From an uncultured Candidatus Saccharibacteria bacterium (GTDB taxonomy: Bacteria > Patescibacteriota > Minisyncoccia > Phycocordibacterales > UBA9973): 45,218 bases of DNA. The notes beneath the pieces are model-generated. The model was not told the DNA's origin. It saw nothing but the letters and a program-made list of their open reading frames with translations, and did no database searches. The stretch is taken from the NCBI GenBank assembly GCA_964586975.1, contig CAZPJV010000002.1:1-45218 (forward strand), given 5' to 3'. A program made the position numbers and the translations under genes. The stretch's first letter is position 1; every line of letters starts with the position of its first letter. Below, piece after piece: positions 6,654 to 40,500 of the stretch.

Positions 6654-6703
6654 GCGCGTAGCTCAGCTTGCCCCGCCTGAACTAGGCGGGGTGAAGTAGA
6701 GCG
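6654..6703 (+). other. tRNA D-arm-like fragment A with hairpin inserted in the D-loop
   Basis: GCGCGTAGCTCAGCTTG[CCCCGCCTGAACTAGGCGGGG]TGAAGTAGAGCG. The flanks resemble tRNA positions about 1-25 and no anticodon arm follows. Confidence 0.7.
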
Positions 6704-6734: not shown

Positions 6735-6808
6735 GGGCGGTTAGCTCATTTGGCTAGAGCGCGTCGTTGACGTCGACGAGGTAACAAGTTCGAGTCTTGT
6801 ACCGCCCA
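6735..6808 (+). tRNA. tRNA-Val (anticodon GAC), no encoded CCA
   Basis: Acceptor GGGCGGT/ACCGCCC, anticodon stem CGTCG/CGACG with loop TTGACGT, T arm ACAAG-TTCGAGT-CTTGT, discriminator A. Confidence 0.9.
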
Positions 6809-6809
6809 C

Positions 6810-7079
6810 ATGAGTTGTTATGTATATTTGATTCAAAGCAGTTTAGATAAGAGTTTCTATGTTGGCATATCTGAAGATCCATTTAAACGTCTTCATGAGC
6901 ATAATAGCGGTAAATTAAAAAGTACTTCAAGAAAGAAACCATATGCCATGATTTATACAAAAGAATATCCAGATTATAAATCTGCAAGGAAACACGAAAT
7001 TTGGTTGAAAAAGAAAAATTTAAATTATAAATTAAGGTTAGCTCAGCTTGCCCCGCCTAGTTCAGGTGGGGTAAACTAG
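6810..7079 (+). CDS. GIY-YIG nuclease family protein (89 aa, domain only)
   Basis: CYVYLIQS...FYVGISEDPFKRLHEHN pattern. The ATG begins 2 nt after the tRNA-Val discriminator base. The C-terminal 14 codons read through tRNA-like fragment B. Confidence 0.85.
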   Translation: MSCYVYLIQSSLDKSFYVGISEDPFKRLHEHNSGKLKSTSRKKPYAMIYTKEYPDYKSARKHEIWLKKKNLNYKLRLAQLAPPSSGGVN

Positions 7080-7100
7080 AGCGACCTCTTGACGTGTGTC
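7035..7100 (+). other. Degenerate tRNA-Val-like 5' fragment B with hairpin in the D-loop
   Basis: GGTTAGCTCAGCTTG[CCCCGCCTAGTTCAGGTGGGG]TAAACTAGAGCGACCTCTTGACGTG. The D-arm flanks match fragment A and tRNA-Val. TTGAC recalls the Val anticodon loop, but no stem or 3' half follows. Confidence 0.65.
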
Positions 7101-7103
7101 TTT

Positions 7104-8255
7104 ATGAGAATTTTAAGCATTGAAACGAGTTGCGACGAAACCAGTATCGCAGTTATGAAAGCCACGGGCGGTATAACCGATGCTTCGTTCAGAGTGCTGG
7201 CGCATGAAATTTCTTCGCAGGCGGCAATGCACTCTCCTTTCGGCGGGGTTTACCCCTCGCTGGCCAAACGCGAGCATATAAAAAATCTTCCTCTACTTCT
7301 TAATAAAATCCTGAAAAAATTAAAAACTAAAAAAATTGACTTGATTGCGGTCACTTCCGGCCCGGGACTGGAACCGGCATTATGGACCGGCATAGTTTTT
7401 GCGCAGGAACTCGCCAGAAAATGGAAGGTGCCCTTGATACCGGTAAATCATATGGAAGGGCATATCTTTTCTACTTTTGCTAAGGCGGAAAAAAAATTCC
7501 AAATTCCCAATGCCAAATTCCCAATGCTTGCCCTGCTAGTTTCCGGCGGACACACCCAACTCGTGCTTTCAAACCGGTGGCTCAACTATAAAATAATCGG
7601 CGAGACGCTGGATGACGCGGTCGGCGAGGCCTATGACAAGGTTGCGCGGATGCTCGGCTTGCCCTACCCCGGCGGGCCGGAAATTTCAAAGTTAGCGGAG
7701 CAGCTAAGGGCAGAGGGAAAACAATTTTTACGGGGTGTCTCGCAGGCCGACGGGCCGAGAGGCAGCGCTCCGCGAGCACGCGGAGACAGCGACCCCGCAA
7801 AGATTGGTTTTCCCATAGCCCTCCCCCGCCCGATGCTCAAGAGCAAAAATTTTAATTTTTCATATTCTGGGCTAAAAACCGCAGTGCTTTATTTAATAAA
7901 AAAAATTAGCAAATTGGATAAAAAAACCAAAGCGCAAATCGCTCTGGAGTTTGAAAATGCGGCGATTGAATGCCTGACCTATAAAACCGCCCGGGCGATA
8001 GAAAAATATAAAATTAAAACTCTGGTAGTCGGCGGCGGAGTTTCCGCCAACACGCATTTAAAAAGAGAAATCACCCGCCTTCGCCAAGGCTTCGGACGGG
8101 CAAGAAAAAATCTCAAAATTTTCTTTCCGCCGAAAGAACTAACGGGCGACAACGCGCTGATGATAGGCATCGCCGGTTATCTAAATTATTTGAAAAATAA
8201 GAAAAAAGTTCCAAAACCGGAAAGCATAAAAGCGGATGGAAATTTGAGCTTATAG
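7104..8255 (+). CDS. tsaD: tRNA N6-adenosine threonylcarbamoyltransferase TsaD
   Basis: MRILSIETSCDETS start, and the HMEGH, GGHT and GGGVSAN motifs. The ORF-track start at 7089 (TTG) lies in the tRNA-like fragment, so I prefer ATG 7104. It contains an in-frame insertion of about 25 aa before the PRPM motif. Confidence 0.9.
   Translation: MRILSIETSCDETSIAVMKATGGITDASFRVLAHEISSQAAMHSPFGGVYPSLAKREHIKNLPLLLNKILKKLKTKKIDLIAVTSGPGLEPALWTGIVFAQELARKWKVPLIPVNHMEGHIFSTFAKAEKKFQIPNAKFPMLALLVSGGHTQLVLSNRWLNYKIIGETLDDAVGEAYDKVARMLGLPYPGGPEISKLAEQLRAEGKQFLRGVSQADGPRGSAPRARGDSDPAKIGFPIALPRPMLKSKNFNFSYSGLKTAVLYLIKKISKLDKKTKAQIALEFENAAIECLTYKTARAIEKYKIKTLVVGGGVSANTHLKREITRLRQGFGRARKNLKIFFPPKELTGDNALMIGIAGYLNYLKNKKKVPKPESIKADGNLSL
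7728..7801. repeat. GC-rich imperfect palindrome inserted in frame in tsaD
   Basis: Arms TTACGGGGTGTCTCGC and GCGGAGACAGCGACCCCGCAA. It encodes LRGVSQADGPRGSAPRARGDSDPAK, which is absent from E. coli TsaD between GGP..L and FPRPM. Confidence 0.6.
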
Positions 8256-21834: not shown

Positions 21835-21942
21835 ATGCTTTTCAATAAAAAACATCAAAAGAAAATTCAGGTTGTCTGGGCAGTGCTGTCCGTCCTGATT
21901 ATAGTCTCAATGATTCTGCTCTACGCGCCCATCTTCCGCTAA
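21835..21942 (+). CDS. Possible 35-aa membrane micro-protein (not in ORF track)
   Basis: MLFNKKHQKKIQVVWAVLSVLIIVSMILLYAPIFR has a basic N-terminus followed by one TM helix. An extended -10 TGtTATAAT (21818-21826) lies 8 nt upstream of the ATG. Confidence 0.35.
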   Translation: MLFNKKHQKKIQVVWAVLSVLIIVSMILLYAPIFR

Positions 21943-23789
21943 CGATTCTGGGAACGCATCATTTTGAGAAATACGTCTTGGGGAATATTTATTTTGCCCT
22001 TGGCTTTCATGCGAGCCTTGCCCCTCTTCTGCTTTTCCAAAAGTTTTTTCTTGCGGCTGACATCGCCGCCGCCGACTACTTTGGAACCATGCATCAGCAC
22101 ATCTTTGCGGAAGGCGGCAACAGTTTCCGAGGCGATTATCCGGCCCAAGGCTTTGCCCTGAACTTTGAAGGCGAATTGTTGTCTCGGAATCACTTTTTGC
22201 AGCCGTTCCACCTGGGCTCGGGCTTCTTCTTCCACTCTGCGCCGCGAAATTATCCGGCAGAATGCCGGCATGGGTTCGTCTGCTACCAGAATGTCCAGCC
22301 GCGCCACATCCGCTTCTTTATACTCAGCCAGTTCGTACGCAATGGAAGCATAACCGGAAGTTATGCTTTTTAAGTCATCAAAAAAATTGCGCATCAGCTC
22401 CCGGAGCGGCATTTCCAGGCTGATGGACGAGCGGTTATCGCCGAAGTTCTCGGCGGTGTGAACTATCGCCTCGTGGTCAAACAGAAAAGGCATCAGCAGG
22501 CTGGCGTAGGTTTGCGGAGTAATTATTTTTACTTTGACCCACGGCTCGTAGACCCTGCCAATCTGTCCGTCTTCGGGGAAAAAGTGCGGGGAATAAATTA
22601 TTTCCTCCTTCCCGTTTTTTAATATCACTTTATAATTTATGGAAGGTGTAGTTATCACCAAACGCATATTAAATTCTCTCTTCAGGCGCTCGGTAATTAT
22701 TTCCAGATGGAGCATTCCTAAAAATCCGCAACGAAAACCTTTGCCTAAGGCTCCGGAAGATTCTTCTTCATAAGAAAACGCCGAGTCCGACAGCCGCAGT
22801 TTGCCCAAAGCCAATTTGAGAGACGGAAAATCGTCGGCGTCTTCGGGATATACGGACGCCCAGACTACGGGCTTGGGATTCAGGTAGCCGGGCAGAGCGG
22901 GAGCAGGTTTTTTATTTAAAGTTATGGTATCGCCCACCGAAGCGATACCGGGCTTCCTGATGCCGGTAACGATATAGCCTATCTCGCCGGCGGTTATGGA
23001 ATTTTTGGGAGATTCAACCGGCGCAAACACACCCACTTCCAGGGCAATGAATTTTTCTCCCGAAACGGCGAAGACCAGCGCGTCGCCCTTTTTTATTTCC
23101 CCGCCGAAGACCCGCACATAGACAATCACTCCGCGATGATTGTCATATTTGAAATCAAAAACGAGCGCTTGTACCCCTTCCTGTCCTCCCCCTACGTAGG
23201 GGGAGGTGCCCTGAGTTTGTCGAAGGGCGGAGGGGGTAGGCGGCGGCACTTTTTCAATAATTTTCCCGAGCAGATTTTCCACACCTTCGCCTGTCTTGCC
23301 GGAAACTTCCAGAACCGCGTCCGGGTCTAGGTTGAGAAGCACCGCCGCTTCCATTTTAACTTCCTCAATTCTTGCGAGCGGCGAATCAATTTTAGACACC
23401 ACCGGTATTATTTTCAGTCCATTGTCCTGCGCCATTTGGAGCGTAGTCAGTGTCTGCGCCTGCACGCCTTGAGTAGAATCCACCAGTAGAATGGAACCCT
23501 CCACCGCCTTGAGCGCGCGGGAAACCTCGTAAGAGAAATCTATGTGGCCGGGAGTGTCTATCAGGTTAAGCACGTATGCTTCACCGCCTATTTCATACTC
23601 CATGCGAACGGGTTGCATTTTTATGGTAATGCCCCGCTCCCGTTCCAGCTCCATGGAGTCCAGCACCTGCTCGCGCATTTTGCGGGCTTCAATGGTATGC
23701 GTAATTTCCAGCAGGCGGTCCGCTAGGGTGGATTTCCCGTGGTCAATATGCGCGATGATACTAAAGTTGCGTATGTTTTCTAATTTCAT
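21939..23789 (-). CDS. lepA: Elongation factor 4 (LepA), with an in-frame insertion of about 20 aa
   Basis: G motifs AHIDHGKST, DTPGH and SKID, plus the LepA C-terminal domain. It has extra residues SALRQTQGTSPYVGGGQEG between PPP and the LQAL(V/I)FD segment. Confidence 0.92.
   Translation of the reverse strand: MKLENIRNFSIIAHIDHGKSTLADRLLEITHTIEARKMREQVLDSMELERERGITIKMQPVRMEYEIGGEAYVLNLIDTPGHIDFSYEVSRALKAVEGSILLVDSTQGVQAQTLTTLQMAQDNGLKIIPVVSKIDSPLARIEEVKMEAAVLLNLDPDAVLEVSGKTGEGVENLLGKIIEKVPPPTPSALRQTQGTSPYVGGGQEGVQALVFDFKYDNHRGVIVYVRVFGGEIKKGDALVFAVSGEKFIALEVGVFAPVESPKNSITAGEIGYIVTGIRKPGIASVGDTITLNKKPAPALPGYLNPKPVVWASVYPEDADDFPSLKLALGKLRLSDSAFSYEEESSGALGKGFRCGFLGMLHLEIITERLKREFNMRLVITTPSINYKVILKNGKEEIIYSPHFFPEDGQIGRVYEPWVKVKIITPQTYASLLMPFLFDHEAIVHTAENFGDNRSSISLEMPLRELMRNFFDDLKSITSGYASIAYELAEYKEADVARLDILVADEPMPAFCRIISRRRVEEEARAQVERLQKVIPRQQFAFKVQGKALGRIIASETVAAFRKDVLMHGSKVVGGGDVSRKKKLLEKQKRGKARMKAKGKINIPQDVFLKMMRSQNR
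23173..23240. repeat. TIR-family palindromic element, in frame in lepA
   Basis: The left arm ACCCCTTCCTGTCCTCCCC closely matches the leuS copy (ACCCCTCCCTGTCCCTCCCC at 29817). The right arm is GGAGGGGGTAGG. The core contains the perfect 22-nt palindrome CCTCCCCCTACGTAGGGGGAGG (23185-23206). Confidence 0.7.
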
Positions 23790-23795
23790 AAATTT

Positions 23796-23846
23796 ACCTC
23801 ACCCCTTCGCCCCTCTCCTTAATAAGGAGAGGGGTTGGGGAGAGGT
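23796..23846. repeat. TIR-family palindromic element, intergenic single-hairpin copy
   Basis: ACCTCACCCCTTCG-CCCCTCTCCTT-AAT-AAGGAGAGGGG-TTGGGGAGAGGT. It fills the gap between the ABC gene stop and the lepA start. Confidence 0.8.
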
Positions 23847-25602
23847 CATTCCAAAAAGCCGCCGGTCTGGTGCTCCCAGAGCTCGGCATAAAAACCACTT
23901 TTTGCCAAAAGTTCCTTGTGGGTTCCCTCTTCCACTATCTTGCCCTGGTCCAGCACGATAATCCGGTCCATTTTTTGAATGGTGGATAGGCGGTGCGCGA
24001 TGACGATAGTAGTTTTGCCCTTCATTAGTTCGTTAAAGGCATCTTGGATATAATGTTCGCTAATGCTATCCAGGGAGCTGGTGGCTTCGTCCAACACCAG
24101 AATCGGCGCGTTCTTCAGCATCGCCCGGGCGATAGCCACCCTCTGTCTTTCCCCGCCGGATAGTTTTATGCCCCGCTCCCCGACCAGCGTATCGTAACCC
24201 TTCGGCAATTTTCTGATAAACTCATCGGCGTGGGCTTTTTGCGCGGCGGCAATTATCTCCGTTTCGGTGGCGTTATTTTTCGCGTAGCCGATATTTTCCT
24301 TAATGGACCGATGAAATAAAATAGATTCCTGCGGCACGTAAGAAATCTTTAACCGCAGTTCGTCTTGTTTCAGTTTAGTAATATCCTGGTCATCAATCAA
24401 AATTTTGCCCTCTTTTATGTCCGAAAAACGCAGGAGCAGTCTGGTAATCGTAGATTTGCCGGAGCCGGATGCCCGACCAATCCAACTTTTTCTCCGGATT
24501 TGATTTCAAGATTAAAATTTTTAAAAACCTTCAGCCCCTCCACATACTCAAAAGAAACACTGCTGAAGTTTATTCTGCCGGCTGAAATCCGGCATGGTTC
24601 TGGATTTGAAACATCCAAAATCTCCGGTTTTAAATCCAGCATATCGGTAATTTCTTTCATATCCGAAAACGCCTCCGCCATTCGGCTTAAAGAGCGGCCT
24701 AGGTTCCACAAAATATCAAAGAGGCCCATCATATATGTTTGGATTAAAACAAAAGTGCCCACCGACATTTTGCCCGCAGACCAAAAATAAATATTCACGA
24801 AAAGAACCACAATCTGTAAAACCGCCATCAGCAACGCTTGAAAAACATTTTGCAGATTGCCGAAATACCAGGCTCGGCGGCGCTTGGTTTCTTCATCTGC
24901 CGTAACAAGTCTGAACTTCTCTTGTTCTTTCCGCCGACCGGAGAAAATTTTTATATTCAAAATATTAGTCAGCGTATCGGCTAATTTGCCGGTCACTACA
25001 GAGTCGGCTGCCGCTTTGCGAGTATCAAAAACTACCTTTCTCCTGGTGAAAAGAATGGTTATGAGAACATAGACCACGGACCAAGCCAAAAAGATAAACC
25101 CCAGGGGTGGAATTTTTATGAACAGGACAAATAAAATGCCGGCAATATTCACCAAGGAAAACCAGATTTGGAAGCTAAGAGTATCTTGGAAAATCTCAAA
25201 TGACCGGGTGAAGCGTTTGGTTTTGGCGACAATACTGCCGGAAAAATTATTGGAGAAAAAAGAATAGGAATGCATTAGGAGTTTATCAAAGGTGTAATCA
25301 TACAAACCCTTCATGGTTCGGCTTTCAAAATAGGCATTGGCATAATCACCGACGCGGTAAAAAACCTGATGCGTTAAAATAATTAGCGCGGACCAAAGCG
25401 CCAAATTAATAATGCGGGTCAAAATTAAGTTAACCTCGGCGCCGCTGGCGATAGAATCAATGATTTCTTTATAGATATAGGGTTTAAGAATATTGTCCAG
25501 TAAAGTGGCCACGCCATAGGCAAAAAACACGAGAAAAAAAGAAAGCCAATACTTCCTCATTTGCGGCCAAACGTGTCTAAAAATTTTGCGAAACGAAATC
25601 AT
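23846..25602 (-). pseudogene. ABC exporter (fused TMD-NBD, MsbA/ABCB-like) split by a -1 frameshift at the Walker A motif
   Basis: The ORF 24415..25602 is a 6-TM ABC membrane domain ending GEKVGLVG and then going out of frame. Shifting one base at the C-run 24472-24474 restores [40 protein letters not shown], continuous with ORF 23846..24400, which carries the LSGGERQR signature, Walker [10 protein letters not shown] and the H-loop AHRL. Confidence 0.85.
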
Positions 25603-29350: not shown

Positions 29351-32300
29351 TTATAAAACTATATTGATAAGCCTGCCCGGCACATAAATAACTTTCTTGA
29401 TATTTTTGCCGGCGATATGCTTGATGGCTGTTTCGTTGGCCAGAGCTTGTATTTTAACCTTTTCTGCCGGGGCTTCCGCGCTTATCACAATTTCCGCCCG
29501 AACTTTGCCGTTAACCTGCACCGCGATTTTTATTTCCTCATCTTTTATTAAATTTCTGTCCCATTTGGGCCATATTGAAAGACTGATAGATTTTTTCTCG
29601 CCGAGCCCTTGCCAAAGTTCTTCGGCGATGTGGGGAGCAAAGGGCGAAAGAATTTGCAAGAACATTTTAAAATCTTTAATTGAAATCCACTGCGCCCGTT
29701 CCATCTCCGTTGCTAAAATCATCATGGCTGAAATTGCGGTATTGAAACGCATATTTTCTATATCTTCCGTAACTTTTTTAATGGTTTTGTGAAGAATTTT
29801 TTTTAAGGTCAAATCCACCCCTCCCTGTCCCTCCCCAAAGGAGAGGGTTATTCCCCCTCTTTTGGAGGGGGTTAGGGGGAGGTGAAGAATTTTCTGCCCT
29901 ATTTTCCACACTCGTTCCAAAAACCTTCGCGGGCCGACTATCGCCTCTTCGCTCCAGGCAATCGCCTGGTCAAAAGGGCCCATGAACATTTCATAAAGCC
30001 GCAGGGTGTCGGCGCCGTATCTTTTCACGATATCGTCGGGATTAATCACATTGCCGCGTGACTTGGACATTTTTTCACCGCCTTCAGCCAAAATCAGCCC
30101 GTGCGAGGTGCGCTTTTTATATGGCTCACTCGTGGGCACCAATTTCAAATCATACAAAAACTTGTGCCAAAAGCGCGAATAAAGCAGGTGGAGCGTAGTG
30201 TGTTCGTTGCCGCCGTTGTACCAGTCAACCCCTCCCTGGCCCTCCCCCAAGGAGAGGGAATTTTTGTTCCCCTTCCTTGGGAAGGGGTTAGGGGTAGGTC
30301 CAAGCCAGTATTTCAAATTTTTCTTTGAGGCAAACTCTTTACTATTTTGGGGGTTAGCATATCGTAAATAATACCAAGAACTCCCCGCCCAGTTAGGCAT
30401 GGTATCCGTTTCGCGTCTGGCAGGACCTTTGCATTTCGGACATTTGGTATTTACCCATTTGGAAATATTTGCCAAAGGTGACTCGCCTGTTTCTGTCGGC
30501 TGATAATTTTTAATTTTCGGCAAAAGAACCGGCAAATCTTTTTCCGGTACCGGCACCCAAGTATTTGAGCAAGGACTACCCTTGCTCACGCAGAAAACTA
30601 CCGGTATCGGCTCCCCCCAATATCTCTGCCGGGAAAAGACCCAGTCCCGCAGTTTGAAAGTTGTCTTTTCCCTGCCGCCGACAAATCTTACGATTTCCCT
30701 TTTCACTTTTTCAGAATCCATGCCGTCGAATTTGCCGGAATTGGCGAGAATTCCTTCGCCGGTATAAACCTGTTCCTGCCCCTGCAAAATATGCCAGTCG
30801 CGCAGAGAACCTTCAATGTTCATAATTCTTTCTAACTCCGGTTTGGTAACCCAGATTAATTCATGTTTTTCTTTTTCGTCCGGAGTAAGTTCTTTCTGTT
30901 CCCCATTTTTTAATTCAAAATAAAAATTGGAGAAATGCGCGAAACGATTTTCTTTCTTGGGCACGTGGTAAAACTTGCTGTGTGAGCGCGGCAGTTCTTT
31001 CAGTAACTTAAAATTCTGATAGCCGGTTTCTTCCCTGATTTCGCGTTCAACTGCTTGGAGCGGTGTTTCTCCTTCATCTACACCACCCGTTATAAATGTT
31101 ACCCAATCAACTTTTTTCCATTTCAAAACCAAATATTTGTCCTCCGAACAATGCTTTAATATCGCATGTACTGCTTCCCGTTCCACGAACGGCAAATCTT
31201 CTCTAGGATTATCAAAAAAGGTCGGCTCAATTACATTTTTAATCGGCAAACTGTATTTTTTCGCAAATTCAAAATCGCGTTCGTCATGCGCCGGCACAGC
31301 CATAATCGCGCTGGTGCCATAGTCATAAGACACATAGTTCACAACCCATACAGGAATCTCTTCGCCATTCGCAGGATTGATGGCTCGGAGGCCAGTATCT
31401 TTTCCTATTTTTTCCCCGCCTGCCATCGCCTGCGGCTTCAGGCCGTGGCGGGCAGGCTTATTTTCCTCTGATTTTACACCAAAGTCACTGCCCGCTAGTT
31501 TCTTCGCGACCTCCGGAGCAATCGCCAAATAAGTCGCTCCGAAAATCGTGTCCGGGCGAGTGGTGAAAACTTTAATGCCCAATTCAACCTCTCCCTGGCC
31601 CTCTCCCAAGGAGAGGGGGTAATCCGGAAGAGTTTCCAATTTTTTATTTATCCTCCTTATTACATCTGCTAAGTTTTCTAAAACTTCCTCATTTGAAAAT
31701 CGGAGAATGGTATAACCAAGTGTTTCCAGCCGATTGATCCTTTCGGCATCTCTTTCTCTCTGATAATTATGAACACCCCCCTCAATTTCTATAACCAAGT
31801 TTTTCGGAAGACAAAGAAAGTCCACAATAAAATGATCAATTATATGCTGTCTTCTGAAATGATATCTCTGTTTGTTCGCTTTTAGCGCTTCCCATAATTT
31901 CCTTTCAGCTTGAGTGGGGTTCTTTCTCATTTCTAATGCTTTCTCAAAAAGTTCCTTATATACTTCAGCATCAGTGGTGACATAACCCGGCAATGCCCCC
32001 CTTCCTTGGGAAGGGGCTGGGGGTAGGTCTGGGGTTAGGTTCTTTATTTTAAATTCTATCTCTGCCCCCTCGGACTTCCCTATCCAATTTCTTTGCGCAA
32101 GTTTTATGTGCGGCAAGTAGTCCACGGTATCTAAATCTTTATCTAACCTTTCCGCATATTTAGTAATCCCCAGCATCCACTGCTCTTTTTCTTTTTTTTC
32201 CACCGGCGTGCCGCAACGTTCGCAAGCGCCACCCACAACCTCTTCATTGGCCAAACCGATTTTACAGGACGGGCACCAATTAATCGGAATTTTTGCTTTG

Positions 32301-32749
32301 TAAGCCAAACCTTTTTTCAAAAATTGCAAAAATATCCACTGCGTCCACTTGTAGTATTTCGGATCAGTGGTATTTATTTCCCGCGACCAGTCAAAAGAAA
32401 TTCCCAGGGATTTTATCTGCTGGCGGAAAGTATCGCTATTTTTTTTAGTAACCACCCGAGGGTCTTGACCGGTCTTGATGGCGTAGTTTTCCGTCGGCAA
32501 ACCAAACGCGTCCCAACCGATGGGGTAAAGCACATTAAAACCTTCCATCCTTTTTTTTCTGGAAATCACATCCATCCCGATATACGGCCGCGGATGTCCC
32601 ACATGCAACCCGTCGCCGGAAGGATAAGGAAACTCAATCAAGCTGTAATATTTAGGTTGTTTTGATAGATCTTTGGCTTGAAAAACCTTCTTTTCCTCCC
32701 AAATTTTCTGCCACTTTCGTTCCAACCCCAAATGCTCATATTCTTTCAT
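29351..32749 (-). CDS. leuS: Leucine--tRNA ligase carrying five in-frame insertions (three TIR elements, one with a DUF559 domain; one hairpin element; one Nudix domain)
   Basis: HIGH (GDGLHVGHP), KMSKS (KMSKSRGN), CP1 editing motifs (TTRPDTIFGATY, GTSAIMAVPAHDERDFEFA), RDWVFSRQRYWGEPIP, and GGNEHTTLHLLYSRFW. At 1132 aa it is much longer than the roughly 860 aa of E. coli LeuRS. Confidence 0.95.
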   Translation of the reverse strand: MKEYEHLGLERKWQKIWEEKKVFQAKDLSKQPKYYSLIEFPYPSGDGLHVGHPRPYIGMDVISRKKRMEGFNVLYPIGWDAFGLPTENYAIKTGQDPRVVTKKNSDTFRQQIKSLGISFDWSREINTTDPKYYKWTQWIFLQFLKKGLAYKAKIPINWCPSCKIGLANEEVVGGACERCGTPVEKKEKEQWMLGITKYAERLDKDLDTVDYLPHIKLAQRNWIGKSEGAEIEFKIKNLTPDLPPAPSQGRGALPGYVTTDAEVYKELFEKALEMRKNPTQAERKLWEALKANKQRYHFRRQHIIDHFIVDFLCLPKNLVIEIEGGVHNYQRERDAERINRLETLGYTILRFSNEEVLENLADVIRRINKKLETLPDYPLSLGEGQGEVELGIKVFTTRPDTIFGATYLAIAPEVAKKLAGSDFGVKSEENKPARHGLKPQAMAGGEKIGKDTGLRAINPANGEEIPVWVVNYVSYDYGTSAIMAVPAHDERDFEFAKKYSLPIKNVIEPTFFDNPREDLPFVEREAVHAILKHCSEDKYLVLKWKKVDWVTFITGGVDEGETPLQAVEREIREETGYQNFKLLKELPRSHSKFYHVPKKENRFAHFSNFYFELKNGEQKELTPDEKEKHELIWVTKPELERIMNIEGSLRDWHILQGQEQVYTGEGILANSGKFDGMDSEKVKREIVRFVGGREKTTFKLRDWVFSRQRYWGEPIPVVFCVSKGSPCSNTWVPVPEKDLPVLLPKIKNYQPTETGESPLANISKWVNTKCPKCKGPARRETDTMPNWAGSSWYYLRYANPQNSKEFASKKNLKYWLGPTPNPFPRKGNKNSLSLGEGQGGVDWYNGGNEHTTLHLLYSRFWHKFLYDLKLVPTSEPYKKRTSHGLILAEGGEKMSKSRGNVINPDDIVKRYGADTLRLYEMFMGPFDQAIAWSEEAIVGPRRFLERVWKIGQKILHLPLTPSKRGGITLSFGEGQGGVDLTLKKILHKTIKKVTEDIENMRFNTAISAMMILATEMERAQWISIKDFKMFLQILSPFAPHIAEELWQGLGEKKSISLSIWPKWDRNLIKDEEIKIAVQVNGKVRAEIVISAEAPAEKVKIQALANETAIKHIAGKNIKKVIYVPGRLINIVL
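29816..29884. repeat. TIR-family palindromic element (cargo-less, 69 bp), in frame in leuS
   Basis: CACCCCTCCCTGTCCCTCCCCAAAGGAGAGGG-TTATT-CCCCCTCTTTTGGAGGGGGTTAGGGGGAGGTG. It encodes LTPSKRGGITLSFGEGQGGV. Confidence 0.85.
30227..30299. repeat. TIR-family palindromic element (cargo-less), in frame in leuS
   Basis: AACCCCTCCCTGGCCCTCCCCCAAGGAGAGGG-AATTTTTGTT-CCCCTTCCTTGGGAAGGGGTTAGGGGTAGGT. It encodes PTPNPFPRKGNKNSLSLGEGQGG immediately before VDWYNGGNEH. Confidence 0.85.
30800..31190 (-). other. Nudix hydrolase domain embedded in LeuRS
   Basis: GGVDEGETPLQAVEREIREETGY (31019-31087) fits the Nudix box GX5EX7REUXEEXGU at every position. Flanking beta-strand-like segments (AVHAILKH..YLVLKW; FYFEL; LIWVT) complete a domain of about 130 aa that E. 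coli LeuRS lacks at this point. Confidence 0.85.
31414..31457. repeat. CTGCCCGCC hairpin element, in frame in leuS CP1
   Basis: On the minus strand it reads GCCTGCCCGCC-ACGGCCTGAAGCCGCAGGCGAT-GGCAGGCGGGG and encodes KPARHGLKPQAMAGGEK. The murJ copy encodes a similar MPARQLAGGDGEK. Confidence 0.6.
31586..32040. mobile_element. TIR-bounded element carrying a DUF559 (Vsr-like) endonuclease domain, in frame in leuS
   Basis: The arm 31586-31620 and the reverse complement of 31996-32028 match at 25 of 33 positions. The interior encodes PTQAERKLWEALK...FRRQHIIDHFIVDFLCLPKNLVIEIEGGVH...RDAERINRLETLGYTILRFSNEEV, which is the DUF559 hallmark pattern. Boundaries are approximate. Confidence 0.8.
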
Positions 32750-35678: not shown

Positions 35679-36311
35679 TTAATCAACACTACACCTTCCG
35701 CCATTACCCGGAAACCAGAAAGAGTTGAGTCTAAGTGCCGCTTCATACATTTCTTCTTCCGTCGCGCCCTGGCTCGCCATTAGTTCCAGAAACCCGAGCA
35801 TAGCCATGCCATGATTGCAATCCGGGAAATGCGCGCTGTTGCTACAGCAGGGCCGGTAGATATTTCGGGAGACTTGGTCCACCAAGGCCTGCTGTGCTGG
35901 CTAGAGGCTAATAAACTCGTGCAGGTTGTAGTGCGTCATCGCATCGCCCCGCGCAAGAGTCCAACCGCCGGTGGAAGCAAAGCCGCCCGCCTTCGCCAAG
36001 GCTTCGGCGGGCGAGCCTGCTTGTTTACCGTCATAATTTACCATTTCTTCCAGAAGTATTTCGTTTTTATTCCCCAACCCGAGCGCCCACAGCGTATTCA
36101 AGATAACTTTGGAATTTTCCGCACTAATTTCCAAATATTTACTGTTGTAATAATTTGGAAATTTGCTTTCATCAATCACTCCCGCTTCCACCAGCCTTGC
36201 TCCTAAGTCCCCCCAATATATGCGGAAGTCTTTTGTTTTTTTGCTCACTGGCACCAGCCCGAGACCAATCACGGCGACGGCAAGCAATACGATCGCAATT
36301 ATTCTAATCAC
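35679..36311 (-). pseudogene. Cys-rich secreted/anchored protein interrupted by one in-frame TAG (pseudogene, error or readthrough)
   Basis: ORFs 35901..36311 and 35679..35885 are in the same frame and separated only by TAG (35901-35903) plus 5 sense codons. The joined product of about 209 aa has an N-terminal TM helix and the motif CCSNSAHFPDCNHGMAMLG. Confidence 0.65.
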
Positions 36312-38389: not shown

Positions 38390-40486
38390 TTATTTTAACA
38401 CCGTCCGTTTTAGCAGTAAAGCGTTAAAGGCGACGATGACCGTGCTGGCGGACATCAGCACTGCCGCGAAAGCCGGCTCCAGGATTATATTTTTCCAAGC
38501 GAGCGCGCCGGCCGCCAAGGGCAGGGCGAAAATATTGTAGCCCGCCGCCCACCAGAGATTTTGAATCATTTTGGAGTAAGTCATTTTGGACAGCCGGATT
38601 ATTTTCACGATGTCCCGCGGGTCGTTGCGCACTAAAATTATGCCCGCCGACTCAATAGCGACATTGGTGCCCGCACCGATAGCGATACCGAGGTCCGCCT
38701 GTGTTAGCGCTGGCGCGTCATTAATGCCGTCGCCCACCATCGCGACTTTGAGCCCGCGACTTTGTAGCTCTCTTACTTTTTCGGATTTCTCGTGCGGCAA
38801 TACGCGGGCGAAGAATTCTTCAATGCCAAGCTCCCGGCTCACAACCCTGGCCACTTCGGCGGAATCGCCGGTAATCATCACCGGCTTGATGCCGAGAGCT
38901 TTGAGTTTCGCCACGGCTTCCGCCGCTTCCGGCCGTGCCGTATCCGCAACTTCTATCTCGCCTATTTTTACGCCGTCCGCTTCCACTATAATTTGCGCGC
39001 CGCCGCGGTGGCCGACGAAAACTTTTTTGCTTGCCCCTAGCGCAGTCGTGGAGCCTTCAATTTCCGCTTCGCCGCCCACGCCGGGAATGCGTTTAAAGTT
39101 TTTAGATGGAAGTATAGACAATTTTAACTCCCCCGCTTTCTCAACTATGCTTTTCGCAATCGGATGTTCAGAATGCGCATCCACCGCGGCGGCTAGACGC
39201 AGAGTTTCCTCCGAGGAATATGCCGTAACGCTAAATTGACCTCGGGTGAGTGTCCCAGTTTTATCAAAAAGTACCGCACCTACACTGCGCGCCGCTTCCA
39301 AAGCCAACCGTTGTTTAACCAGAAAGCCGTTGTGCGCCGCCTTGGTAGTGGAAATGGAAGCGACCAATGGCACCGCCAGCCCCAGCGCGTGCGGGCAAGC
39401 AATCACGAGCACTGCCACCAGACGCGAAACAGCGAAAGCGACTTCCGCGCCGGCCAAAAGCCAGGCGACAAAAGTGATGGCGCCGCCGGCCACTGCGACT
39501 ATAGTCAGAAGAAACGCCGCCTTGTCCGAGAGTATCTGCAAGCGCGACTTGGAAGCCTGCGCCTCCGCCACCAGACGCATGACGCCGGCGAGAAAAGTCT
39601 TTTCGCCTATGTTGGTAACTTTTATTTTGAGCGAACCGTCTCCCGTAATGGTGCCGGCAATCACGCTGTCATTTTCTTTTTTAAATACCGGCCGCGATTC
39701 GCCGGTCATCATGGATTCGTTGATATCGGATTGTCCTTCGGTTATCAAGCCGTCCGCCGGAATCTTGCCGCCCGGCCGCACCAAGACCACATCACCTTCT
39801 TTCAACTCCGAAATCTCTATGGTTTCTGTTTTGCTTGTCCCGAGTTTAGTCGAGGGATCATTCCTAATTACTTCCGCCGTATCCGGCAGAAGTTTGGATA
39901 GCTCCTTGAGCGCGCCCTGCGCGCCGGACACCGCCCGCATTTCCAGCCAGTGGCCCAAAAGCATAATGGTGATAAGCGTGGTCAGTTCCCAAAACAGCGC
40001 TTCTTCGCCCGCAAAAACAGCATAGACACTCCAGATGTACGCGGCAGAAATAGCGATAGCGATTAGCGTCATCATGCCCGGCAGTCTGCCTTTGATTTCT
40101 CTCCAGGCACTGGCTAAGAAAACCCAGCCGCCATAGAAAAACACCAGCGAGCCGAACACGAGCGGCATGTATGCTAAACCGGGAAATCCTGGCAATGACC
40201 ACTTGAAAATAGTTTTAAAAACATCCGCGTAAAGCACCACCGGAATTGTAAGAAGCAAGCTGACCCAGAATTTGCGCAAAAACATTTTCGTGCTATGTCC
40301 AGCGTGCTTGTCCGCCGAAGCCTTGGCGGAGGCGGATTTGCCGTGACTAGGTTTCATTTTCACCAGCGCCATGCCGCACTCCGGACACATGCCCGGCCGC
40401 TCCTGCCTGATTTCCGGATGCATTGGGCAGGTGTAAATTATTTTTCCGTCTTCTTGTGTTATGTGATGATTGTGTTCCATATCCAT
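38390..40486 (-). CDS. copB: Copper-translocating P1B-type ATPase (CPH motif, CopB-like) with an N-terminal Cys4 metal-binding motif
   Basis: TGES (MTGESRPV), CPH in TM6 ([11 protein letters not shown]), [16 protein letters not shown]-terminal [24 protein letters not shown]. Confidence 0.9.
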
Positions 40487-40500
40487 TATTTAACAGATTT

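Follow-up and report, generated by a model that had tools for sequence, protein, structure and literature searches.

A 69-bp in-frame palindrome in the leuS gene of a Paceibacteria bacterium as a candidate miniature of a hairpin-armed DUF559 nuclease element

Rickettsia palindromic elements (RPEs), reportedly described by Ogata et al. in 2000, are short palindromic repeats of ~100–150 bp that reside in frame in the housekeeping genes of a reduced genome, with several families per genome. To our knowledge, they are confined to Rickettsia, and we know of no protein partner for them. Here, we analyze a 69-bp palindrome within leuS, the gene encoding leucyl-tRNA synthetase (LeuRS), on a 45,218-nucleotide stretch of contig CAZPJV010000002.1 (hereafter, the window) from a Paceibacteria bacterium of the Candidate Phyla Radiation (CPR). 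A preliminary description of the sequence had likened the palindrome to RPEs, and the analogy proved apt, as cargo-less copies of the same family were found in frame in trigger-factor-like, NusA-like, LepA and LeuRS genes. Like RPEs, the element is a multi-copy palindrome (four copies in the window and at least 120 genome loci) that lies in frame, adds extra surface loops to proteins and is present in some orthologues and absent from others. In a comparison made by description, it differs from RPEs in its size (51–80 bp in the CPR copies), GC-richness, hairpin arms, nuclease-encoding full-length relatives, and occurrence in CPR bacteria and Bacteroidota. Since the host is a Paceibacteria bacterium, we regard the element as an analogue of RPEs rather than as a member of that group.

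Other described systems share some of these properties. REP (repetitive extragenic palindromic) sequences and REPINs are extragenic GC-rich hairpin repeats, often arranged as inverted pairs, that are tied to a single-copy Y1 (HUH) transposase, RAYT, and cause no target duplication. The leuS element shares with them the GC-rich hairpins, the inverted pairs and the single dedicated enzyme; however, three of its four copies in the window are intragenic and translated, and the linked enzyme is a Vsr-like DUF559 nuclease. The GC clusters of yeast mitochondria are mobile GC-rich palindromes in a genome of lower GC content and are sometimes found in frame in coding sequence; unlike the leuS element, they are organellar, have no nuclease between arms and are unrelated in sequence. 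In-frame palindromic insertions of the yeast mitochondrial kind have been discussed (PMC8811140), and miniature transposable elements bounded by inverted repeats (MITEs), such as Correia and Nezha, have been reviewed in an article that also mentions RPEs (PMC10969869). As with MITEs, of which occasional in-frame insertions are known, small non-coding derivatives bounded by terminal inverted repeats (TIRs) outnumber a coding partner that has the same ends; the differences are that the partner encodes a PD-(D/E)XK nuclease instead of a DDE or other transposase, and that target-site duplication was not found.

The nuclease itself leads to a further comparison. VSR, DUF559 and the homing endonuclease I-Bth0305I (PDB 3r3p) have been placed in one PD-(D/E)XK group (PMC3424549). 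I-Bth0305I is encoded by a group I intron and acts as a homodimer on a pseudopalindromic target (PMC3239194); other Vsr-like homing endonucleases lie between split inteins in "fractured genes" (PMC2677866), and DUF559 occurs in inteins (PMC9403480). The leuS element resembles such Vsr/EDxHD homing genes in its clan, its selfish behavior, its use of one conserved site in an essential gene in two phyla (site 3 of leuS, below), and its host-decoupled history. The known Vsr-like homing genes, however, are found within group I introns or inteins, or between the parts of split ones, and splicing restores the host product. The leuS element has neither an intron nor an intein around it, its nuclease and arms are predicted to stay in the mature protein, the module has hairpin arms and miniature derivatives, and very many host genes are involved. 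In the literature within our reach, which excludes most subscription journals, we found no account of DUF559 with inverted or hairpin arms or as an unspliced in-frame mobile insert, nor any description of in-frame palindromic elements, MITEs of this kind, or LeuRS insertions in CPR bacteria.

Anatomy of the leuS copies

The host gene (29351–32749, minus strand) encodes a LeuRS of 1132 aa, as judged from the open reading frame (ORF) list, the translation and Pfam matches to tRNA-synt_1, tRNA-synt_1_2 and Anticodon_1, and it holds three copies of the element along with a NUDIX insertion. Copy 1, at 29816–29884, reads CACCCCTCCCTGTCCCTCCCCAAAGGAGAGGG-TTATT-CCCCCTCTTTTGGAGGGGGTTAGGGGGAGGTG on the plus strand, and the sequence quoted in the preliminary description was confirmed at that position. 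Its 69 bp equal 23 codons, which are read in frame on the leuS strand (minus) as HLPLTPSKRGGITLSFGEGQGGV (aa 956–978), directly after FLERVWKIGQKIL in the C-terminal part of the enzyme, as had been reported. Two 32-nt arms, complementary at 24/32 positions, are separated by a 5-nt spacer, and the GC content is 62%, compared to 48% for the window. The gene-sense 5′ arm (29853–29884, minus) comprises CACCTCCCCC, TAA and the hairpin CCCCCTC-CAAAA-GAGGGGG, and encodes HLPLTPSKRGG. The gene-sense 3′ arm (29816–29847, minus) comprises the hairpin CCCTCTCC-TTT-GGGGAGGG, for which there is covariation (below), followed by ACA and GGGAGGGGTG, and encodes LSFGEGQGGV. Copy 1 is also bracketed by a 12-nt exact direct repeat, GTGAAGAATTTT, at 29789–29800 and 29882–29893, the second of which shares the last 3 nt of the element. 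The repeats are 93 nt (31 codons) apart, and the peptide KILH is duplicated around copy 1. They provide the sole hint of target duplication in the arm family and may represent such a duplication, a microhomology footprint, or a coincidence with host K(I/L)L motifs.

Copy 2 (30227–30300, minus) is likewise cargo-less; it has a 10-nt spacer, spans ~74 bp between arm ends and encodes (G)PTPNPFPRKGNKNSLSLGEGQGGV between KYW and VDWYNGG, a net gain of 25 codons over empty alleles. Copy 3 (31586–32029, minus) is a full-length element that is inserted in frame where the catalytic core meets the CP1 editing domain, with arms at 31586–31617 and 31998–32029 around a DUF559 endonuclease domain. On the plus strand, the left arms of copies 1–3 are alike at 27–30/32 positions and the right arms at 24–30/32 (75–94% for same-side arms), whereas opposite arms are 66–75% complementary. 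The same arms thus flank the DUF559 ORF in copy 3, which bears out the earlier view of copy 1 as a cargo-less copy of a TIR element, and the G-E-G-Q-G-(G/E)-V peptide said to be common to the three copies is present in all of them.

A scan of the window with a degenerate hairpin pattern returned three matches, all in the leuS copies, where 0.02 were expected. The fourth family member, a single long hairpin at 23796–23846 (nhmmer E = 0.0046), reads ACCTCACCCC-TTCG-CCCCTCTCC-TTAATAA-GGAGAGGGG-TTGG-GGAGAGGT. It is intergenic, fills a 56-nt gap between two minus-strand genes, ends in GGTGAGGT 6 nt before the ATG of the gene at 21939–23789, and overlaps the stop codon of the gene at 23846–24400. 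Three of the four members therefore lie in leuS, which makes up 7.5% of the window (p = 0.0016). No Rfam family matched any of the window copies.

Each arm, in the order of the gene-sense 3′ arm, has an 8-bp hairpin with the consensus CCCTCTCC-loop-GGAGAGGG; next come three bases that vary, and then a G-rich half-stem, GGGAGRGGT, whose pairing partner is the far end of the opposite arm. In 27 arms from CPR loci, 98.1% of hairpin cells are paired, a value reached by none of 500 shuffles (slid controls, 52–78%), and double compensatory changes occur at four of the eight hairpin pairs (25 cells). As the hairpins are kept by compensatory changes, the alignments indicate that what is conserved is a nucleic-acid structure, beyond the peptide. 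An alternative hairpin between the C-run and the G-rich tail was rejected, since it is paired in 87.8% of cells, below the shuffle mean. Folding energy was also dropped as evidence in favor of covariation: copies such as copy 1 reach only z = −1.45 to −1.8 against dinucleotide shuffles, which is not significant. The case for the element consequently rests on repetition and comparison, that is, on family membership and covariation.

Related forms range from single long hairpins (23796–23846, and site 3 of the orthologue P0085) through two-armed copies of 63–180 bp to full elements of 430–650 bp, and solo arms and single hairpins also exist, some of them nested in DUF559 ORFs. The junctions are very regular. 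Cargo-less copies in relatives read arm-(G)EF/KA-arm (slashes mark junctions), often with a GAATTC-centered spacer, and full copies read arm-GEF/GY.TTD...DUF559.../KA-arm (..KA-LPFGEG..), from which it follows that the nuclease segment occupies the exact center of the element. The window copies have no GAATTC center; their centers are shorter and degenerate (AATAA; AACAAAAATT). At the genome loci, 14 of 134 arms are followed, 3–15 nt beyond the ..GGAGRGGT end, by an ORF of ≥100 aa that opens with ATG, and no arm has one on the other side; by its sequence, this arm end may serve as a Shine-Dalgarno donor.

Read as protein, the C-rich arm supplies Pro, Ser, Thr and Leu codons and the G-rich arm Gly, Glu, Arg and Val codons; because the element is quasi-palindromic, either orientation yields a Pro-rich and then a Gly-rich peptide. 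The preliminary description had held that all of the copies share one frame and one orientation relative to the host gene, as the outcome of selection against frames with stop codons. A common frame was found for the gene-sense 3′ arms of copies 1–3 but not for the 5′ arm of copy 2, which encodes PTPNPFPRKG in another frame than the 5′ arms of copies 1 and 3 (LPLTPSKRGG and DLPPAPSQGRG). Orientation is not kept family-wide, as the copies in LepA, in NusA and at site 2 of the L098 leuS gene are inverted with respect to those in the window. The proposed selection also finds little to act upon: cargo-less copies are open in four of six frames, and the copy-3 arms in five or six of six, such that stop avoidance would filter little. 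Where the preliminary description would have taken random orientation and frame as evidence against it, orientation does vary across the family, but the frames are non-random. Among arms in long ORFs of non-CPR genomes, 21/29 use the two frames of the full-length elements (p = 2e-5), and 15/23 do so when DUF559-bearing copies are left out (p = 0.002). The bias hence points to a cause other than stops, for example the tolerability of the peptides or descent from translated full-length copies.

An AlphaFold model of LeuRS, built on a 65-sequence alignment, has a mean pLDDT of 79, and values below 50 are found mainly at the arm peptides (aa 239–254 and 378–389 of copy 3, 818–839 of copy 2 and 960–977 of copy 1), as well as at 430–445 and in the short stretches 80–84 and 788–791. 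Copy 1 (960–977) lies between helices 935–955 and 978–998, and the inserts are modelled as disordered tethers or loops. By comparison, the DUF559 domain folds at pLDDT 75–91 and the NUDIX insert at >90. The latter is a NUDIX hydrolase domain (PF00293, E = 1.2e-14; aa 547–639; 30833–31111, minus) in the editing-domain region that is present in nearly all of the 120 Paceibacteria LeuRS orthologues described below.

The DUF559 domain (PF04480) of copy 3, a Vsr-like PD-(D/E)XK nuclease domain delimited by the HMM envelope and alignments, occupies 31637–31966 (minus), with the Pfam match (E = 1.3e-30) at aa 268–371, exactly between the two arms. Its nearest solved structure is the DUF559 protein PDB 3hrl (E = 2.6e-19), and I-Bth0305I (3r3p) did not reach E ≤ 1 by sequence. 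Pfam detected no intein or Hint domain in LeuRS, which is one continuous ORF of 1132 aa with the nuclease domain as part of it, and no transposase domain in the DUF559-bearing partner. Intein splicing blocks (an N-terminal Cys, Ser or Thr; a C-terminal His-Asn followed by Cys, Ser or Thr) do not occur at the copy-3 junctions, ..KNL/TPDLPPAPSQGRG.. and ..LGEGQGEV/ELGIKVF, where the flanks are the Pro/Gly-rich arm peptides. The idea that three catalytic acids have been lost was rejected, as a wider alignment leaves a single family-invariant change, an Asp-to-Glu substitution: the domain has E-I-E-G where 52 of 52 embedded relatives have E-x-D-G. Because the local nuclease carries Glu in place of this Asp, the element copies in the window may now be immobile, and possibly fossils.

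Distribution among orthologues, host genes and phyla

We compared the best 120 LeuRS relatives, from Paceibacteria and Nomurabacteria (CPR), the closest of which is 68% identical; an exact look-up of the window's own LeuRS matched no recorded protein. All three leuS sites (numbered after copies 1–3) vary between presence and absence. The preliminary description had placed copy 1 in a variable loop and had called for a comparison of orthologous genes, and the result agrees with it: the closest orthologue (P0010; DNA locus L001) lacks copy 1 and has a short unrelated loop at site 1, five others (P0012, P0013, P0034, P0063 and P0119) carry the same family there, and most of the remainder have unrelated inserts of 20–35 aa in a loop of hypervariable length. 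These alignments support copy 1 as a secondary insertion in a hypervariable loop, not as ancestral sequence. The form most often seen at site 2 is the empty allele, KYWTPVDWYNGG; 17/120 orthologues are occupied there by the same family, and others have short remnants. Site 3 holds a DUF559 element in 29/120 orthologues and a collapsed single arm in P0085, whereas no DUF559 was found at sites 1 or 2 in any of the 120.

On a LeuRS core tree, the 29 DUF559 carriers need 20 parsimony changes and the 17 site-2 carriers need 16, close to what shuffled labels give, and distances between the DUF559 domains show no correlation with those between the LeuRS proteins (Spearman 0.09). These comparisons are suggestive, though not conclusive, of a scattered, host-decoupled history of the inserts. 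Cargo-less and full copies are associated. Of the 17 genes with a cargo-less copy at site 2, 15 have DUF559 at site 3, compared to 14/103 genes without one (Fisher p = 1.7e-9), and the corresponding figures for site 1 are 4/6 and 25/114 (p = 0.03). Arm peptides are more similar within a genome (0.79) than at the same site between genomes (0.73; p = 0.03), a difference that is weakly informative.

Several variations on this theme were observed in the orthologues. The site-3 DUF559 elements of P0013, P0015, P0022, P0044, P0065 and P0090 carry an extra cargo of ~180–200 aa between the 5′ arm and DUF559, with precomputed Pfam hits to the alpha/beta-hydrolase family (PF12695 or PF00561) for P0022 and P0044 and to PF10706 for P0015 and P0090, and the LeuRS proteins concerned reach ~1170–1350 aa. 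At site 3 of a few orthologues lies an insert of ~170 aa, perhaps the NUDIX domain in a new position. In P0021, P0052, P0122, P0127 and P0135, a single arm (e.g., NNLSPTLPEGEGEN) is nested in the DUF559 domain, between its first helices, and arms therefore insert into the nuclease gene too. In addition, two unrelated insert families at sites 1 and 3 of relatives, checked at the DNA level, are also TIR-bounded and in frame; one, GCCTGATGCTTTTGC...GCAAAAGCATGCAGGC, occurs twice in a single leuS gene (L127, 10703–10792 and 12422–12529), and the other, ACAGAAAAATTCT...AGAATTCTTCTGT, in that of another relative (L128, 12338–12430). Peptides that recur over many orthologues suggest several more TIR families.

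Beyond the window, a 29-nt degenerate arm pattern matched at least 120 loci in representative genomes. Among the matches listed, most are from Bacteroidota (Paludibacter, Mucilaginibacter, Prevotella and others), and further ones are from Saccharibacteria, Paceibacterota, Nomurabacteria, Kapaibacterium and one Anaerolineae. Viral contigs gave just two arm matches, and phage carriage is accordingly not prominent. A metagenome scan with a strict gapped cargo-less pattern found at least one locus (L124), at site 2 of leuS. In CPR relatives, the genes with an in-frame cargo-less copy include trigger-factor-like and NusA-like ones (L107; assigned by eye, not by Pfam), LepA (L026) and that of a Peptidase_S74 protein (L002), and leuS (L002) has such a copy at a fourth place. 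In Paludibacter and Microbacter, leuS carries a DUF559 element at the very site 3 of the window (NWIGRSEGAEI.F / LSPALSKGEGE...DUF559...SLSFGEGQGEV /.VFTTRADT.), together with additional cargo-less copies elsewhere in the gene, and in a Mucilaginibacter a DUF559 module separates helicase motifs II and III in an Lhr-like protein. DUF559 was found within 8 kb, the extent of the sequence fetched, at seven of the at least 120 genome loci, which implies that most arms are non-autonomous or solo.

At the protein level, a first word-index search for DUF559 gave only eight proteins; with the window's module as query, 1.84 billion representatives were searched exhaustively, and 6945 proteins matched at E ≤ 1e-10. 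More than 50 of the best 150 of these are long proteins with an internal DUF559 between arm-like peptides (P.P.LP.GEG. upstream, and LP(F/L)GEG.GG or LPSLQGGAGGR downstream). Fifty-two such embedded relatives were scanned and contain 71 Pfam families, including LeuRS, GT2, Type ISP/Eco57I, SpoIIE, MetH, DegT, epimerases, SpoIID and TatD, the last of which is split in two; by eye, further hosts are RsmI, RecJ, Tgt, PriA, RecQ and chorismate synthase. In a crude neighbor-joining tree, the embedded DUF559 domains of CPR bacteria and those of Bacteroidota form sister clades, with free-standing ones outside. In DUF559 proteins of other lineages (P0005, P0007, P0144, P0216 and P0181), the flanking peptides come from different GC-rich repeats (TLTLPRKRGRE, PLPLAGEGWGGG, SPQAGRGD and tandem ALRERGLGDH); DUF559 may be paired with hairpin repeats in general, beyond this arm family.

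Spread of the element and competing explanations

The explanation that we consider, on balance, the probable one is that the 69-bp copy is a non-autonomous miniature of the DUF559 element, mobilized by the nuclease of a full copy through breakage and repair copying. The family is defined by two GC-rich, imperfectly inverted arms of ~32 nt, each made of an 8-bp hairpin and an outer half-stem, and its full-length members by an ORF for a DUF559 (Vsr/EDxHD-clan PD-(D/E)XK) endonuclease placed exactly between them. The DUF559 of a full copy, as a dimer working in trans, would nick or break either the quasi-palindromic arms or the target DNA, and repair would then copy the element in. Under this proposal, the hairpins would be what is recognized and the feature under selection. 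Copy 1 landed secondarily in a LeuRS surface loop that joins the first helix of the anticodon-binding domain to the helix preceding it. Its translation product there, a Pro/Gly-rich peptide of ~23–27 aa that is predicted to be disordered, would be tolerated by the enzyme; we infer no host function for it.

Several observations weigh against this proposal. We know of no transposase that is a lone PD-(D/E)XK nuclease. No target-site duplication was found around 25 paired copies, or at site 2 when filled and empty alleles were compared, and the three empty leuS sites have no obvious sequence in common. Most arms, as noted above, have no nuclease nearby. The co-occurrence of cargo-less copies with DUF559 could reflect whole leuS alleles that were transferred as units, or co-conversion, instead of mobilization in trans, and the trees behind the host-decoupled history are neighbor-joining trees of a star-like sample. 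Finally, the regular central junctions fit equally well with a reverse order of events, in which the palindrome is the primary repeat, akin to REP sequences or GC clusters, and DUF559 is a homing gene that cuts and invades its center; the 69-bp copy would then be an uninvaded target, and the palindrome itself would spread through means of its own or of the host, for example by hairpin-primed template switching, by recombination or with the help of an unlinked enzyme. We regard this reversal as rather unlikely, if well worth weighing. The constant junction at the exact center (cargo-less ..EF/KA.., often centered on GAATTC) is just what it would produce, and the related I-Bth0305I homodimer does cut a pseudopalindrome (PMC3239194). 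The many arm loci without DUF559 nearby, the single-hairpin and solo arms, some inside DUF559 ORFs, and the lack of DUF559 at sites 1 and 2 in all 120 orthologues are also what one would expect of a repeat with a life of its own. Such independent spread, however, does not predict that the cargo-less copies at site 2 are nearly confined to genes with a DUF559 of their own (p = 1.7e-9). The different GC-rich repeats around DUF559 in other phyla likewise point to a functional bond between nuclease and hairpin rather than to parasitism of one repeat, and the GAATTC center is absent from the window's own copies.

Two further explanations carry little weight. Exaptation, whereby the hairpins or the peptide now serve the host by pausing translation, affecting mRNA stability, donating a Shine-Dalgarno sequence or acting as a flexible linker of LeuRS, would account for the compensatory changes and for the 14/134 arms whose Shine-Dalgarno-like G-rich end precedes an ATG-initiated ORF by 3–15 nt. 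We nevertheless think it highly improbable: copy 1 is missing from the closest orthologue and most others, its peptide is modelled as disordered, the same loop takes up unrelated TIR elements in relatives, and a mobility signal predicts hairpin conservation equally. The remaining possibility, that an ancestral or locally evolved low-complexity loop of LeuRS happens to be palindromic and no mobile DNA is involved, could appeal to the unremarkable folding energy and to the hypervariable loop length in all orthologues, but it is contradicted by the results and we give it hardly any credence. The 29-nt arm pattern recurs at at least 120 loci in other genes and phyla, far above chance by our own estimate, three copies lie in one gene against an expectation of 0.02, the sites are present or absent across orthologues, and the hairpins covary.

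We further suggest, tentatively and with slightly less conviction than doubt, that the 69-bp copy is a miniature of an undescribed class of mobile element. In such a class, a module with hairpin arms would have its Vsr/EDxHD-type nuclease made solely as part of a host protein, inserted in frame and left unspliced. Its arms would double as DNA signals and flexible peptide linkers, and it would have entered dozens of genes, housekeeping genes and others, across Patescibacteria and Bacteroidota, with recurrent hot spots such as leuS as a steady source of domain and loop insertions. The full module has a fair chance of deserving a class of its own. If so, in-frame "protein-coding palindromes", so far a peculiarity of Rickettsia, would extend to the Candidate Phyla Radiation and Bacteroidota and would gain their first candidate enzyme, which makes their mobility testable. 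Besides introns and inteins, homing-type nucleases would have a third route into essential genes, one that dispenses with splicing and relies on host loops that tolerate a linker-flanked domain. It would also account for many strange-looking "DUF559 fusion" architectures and for proteins of CPR bacteria that are unusually long and full of inserts, and annotators would do well to treat such inserts as selfish DNA, not as host domains.

Other repeats in the window

The window contains a second, unrelated GC-rich palindromic repeat with the core CCGCCTTCGCCAAGGCTTCGGCGG, at 8063–8095, 35975–36021 and 40301–40335. Two copies are in frame, in a TsaD-like ORF (7080–8252) and a P-type-ATPase-like ORF (38393–40489), and the third lies in a short ORF or is intergenic. 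A 60-nt direct repeat (1267–1326 and 2881–2940; 95% identical, 1614 nt apart) may mark paralogous genes. Lastly, two 45-nt copies of TAGCTCAGCTTG-CCCCGCC-loop-GGCGGGG..., at 6659–6703 and 7039–7083, are 82% identical and flank tRNA-Val (6735–6809), with the loop reverse-complemented between them.

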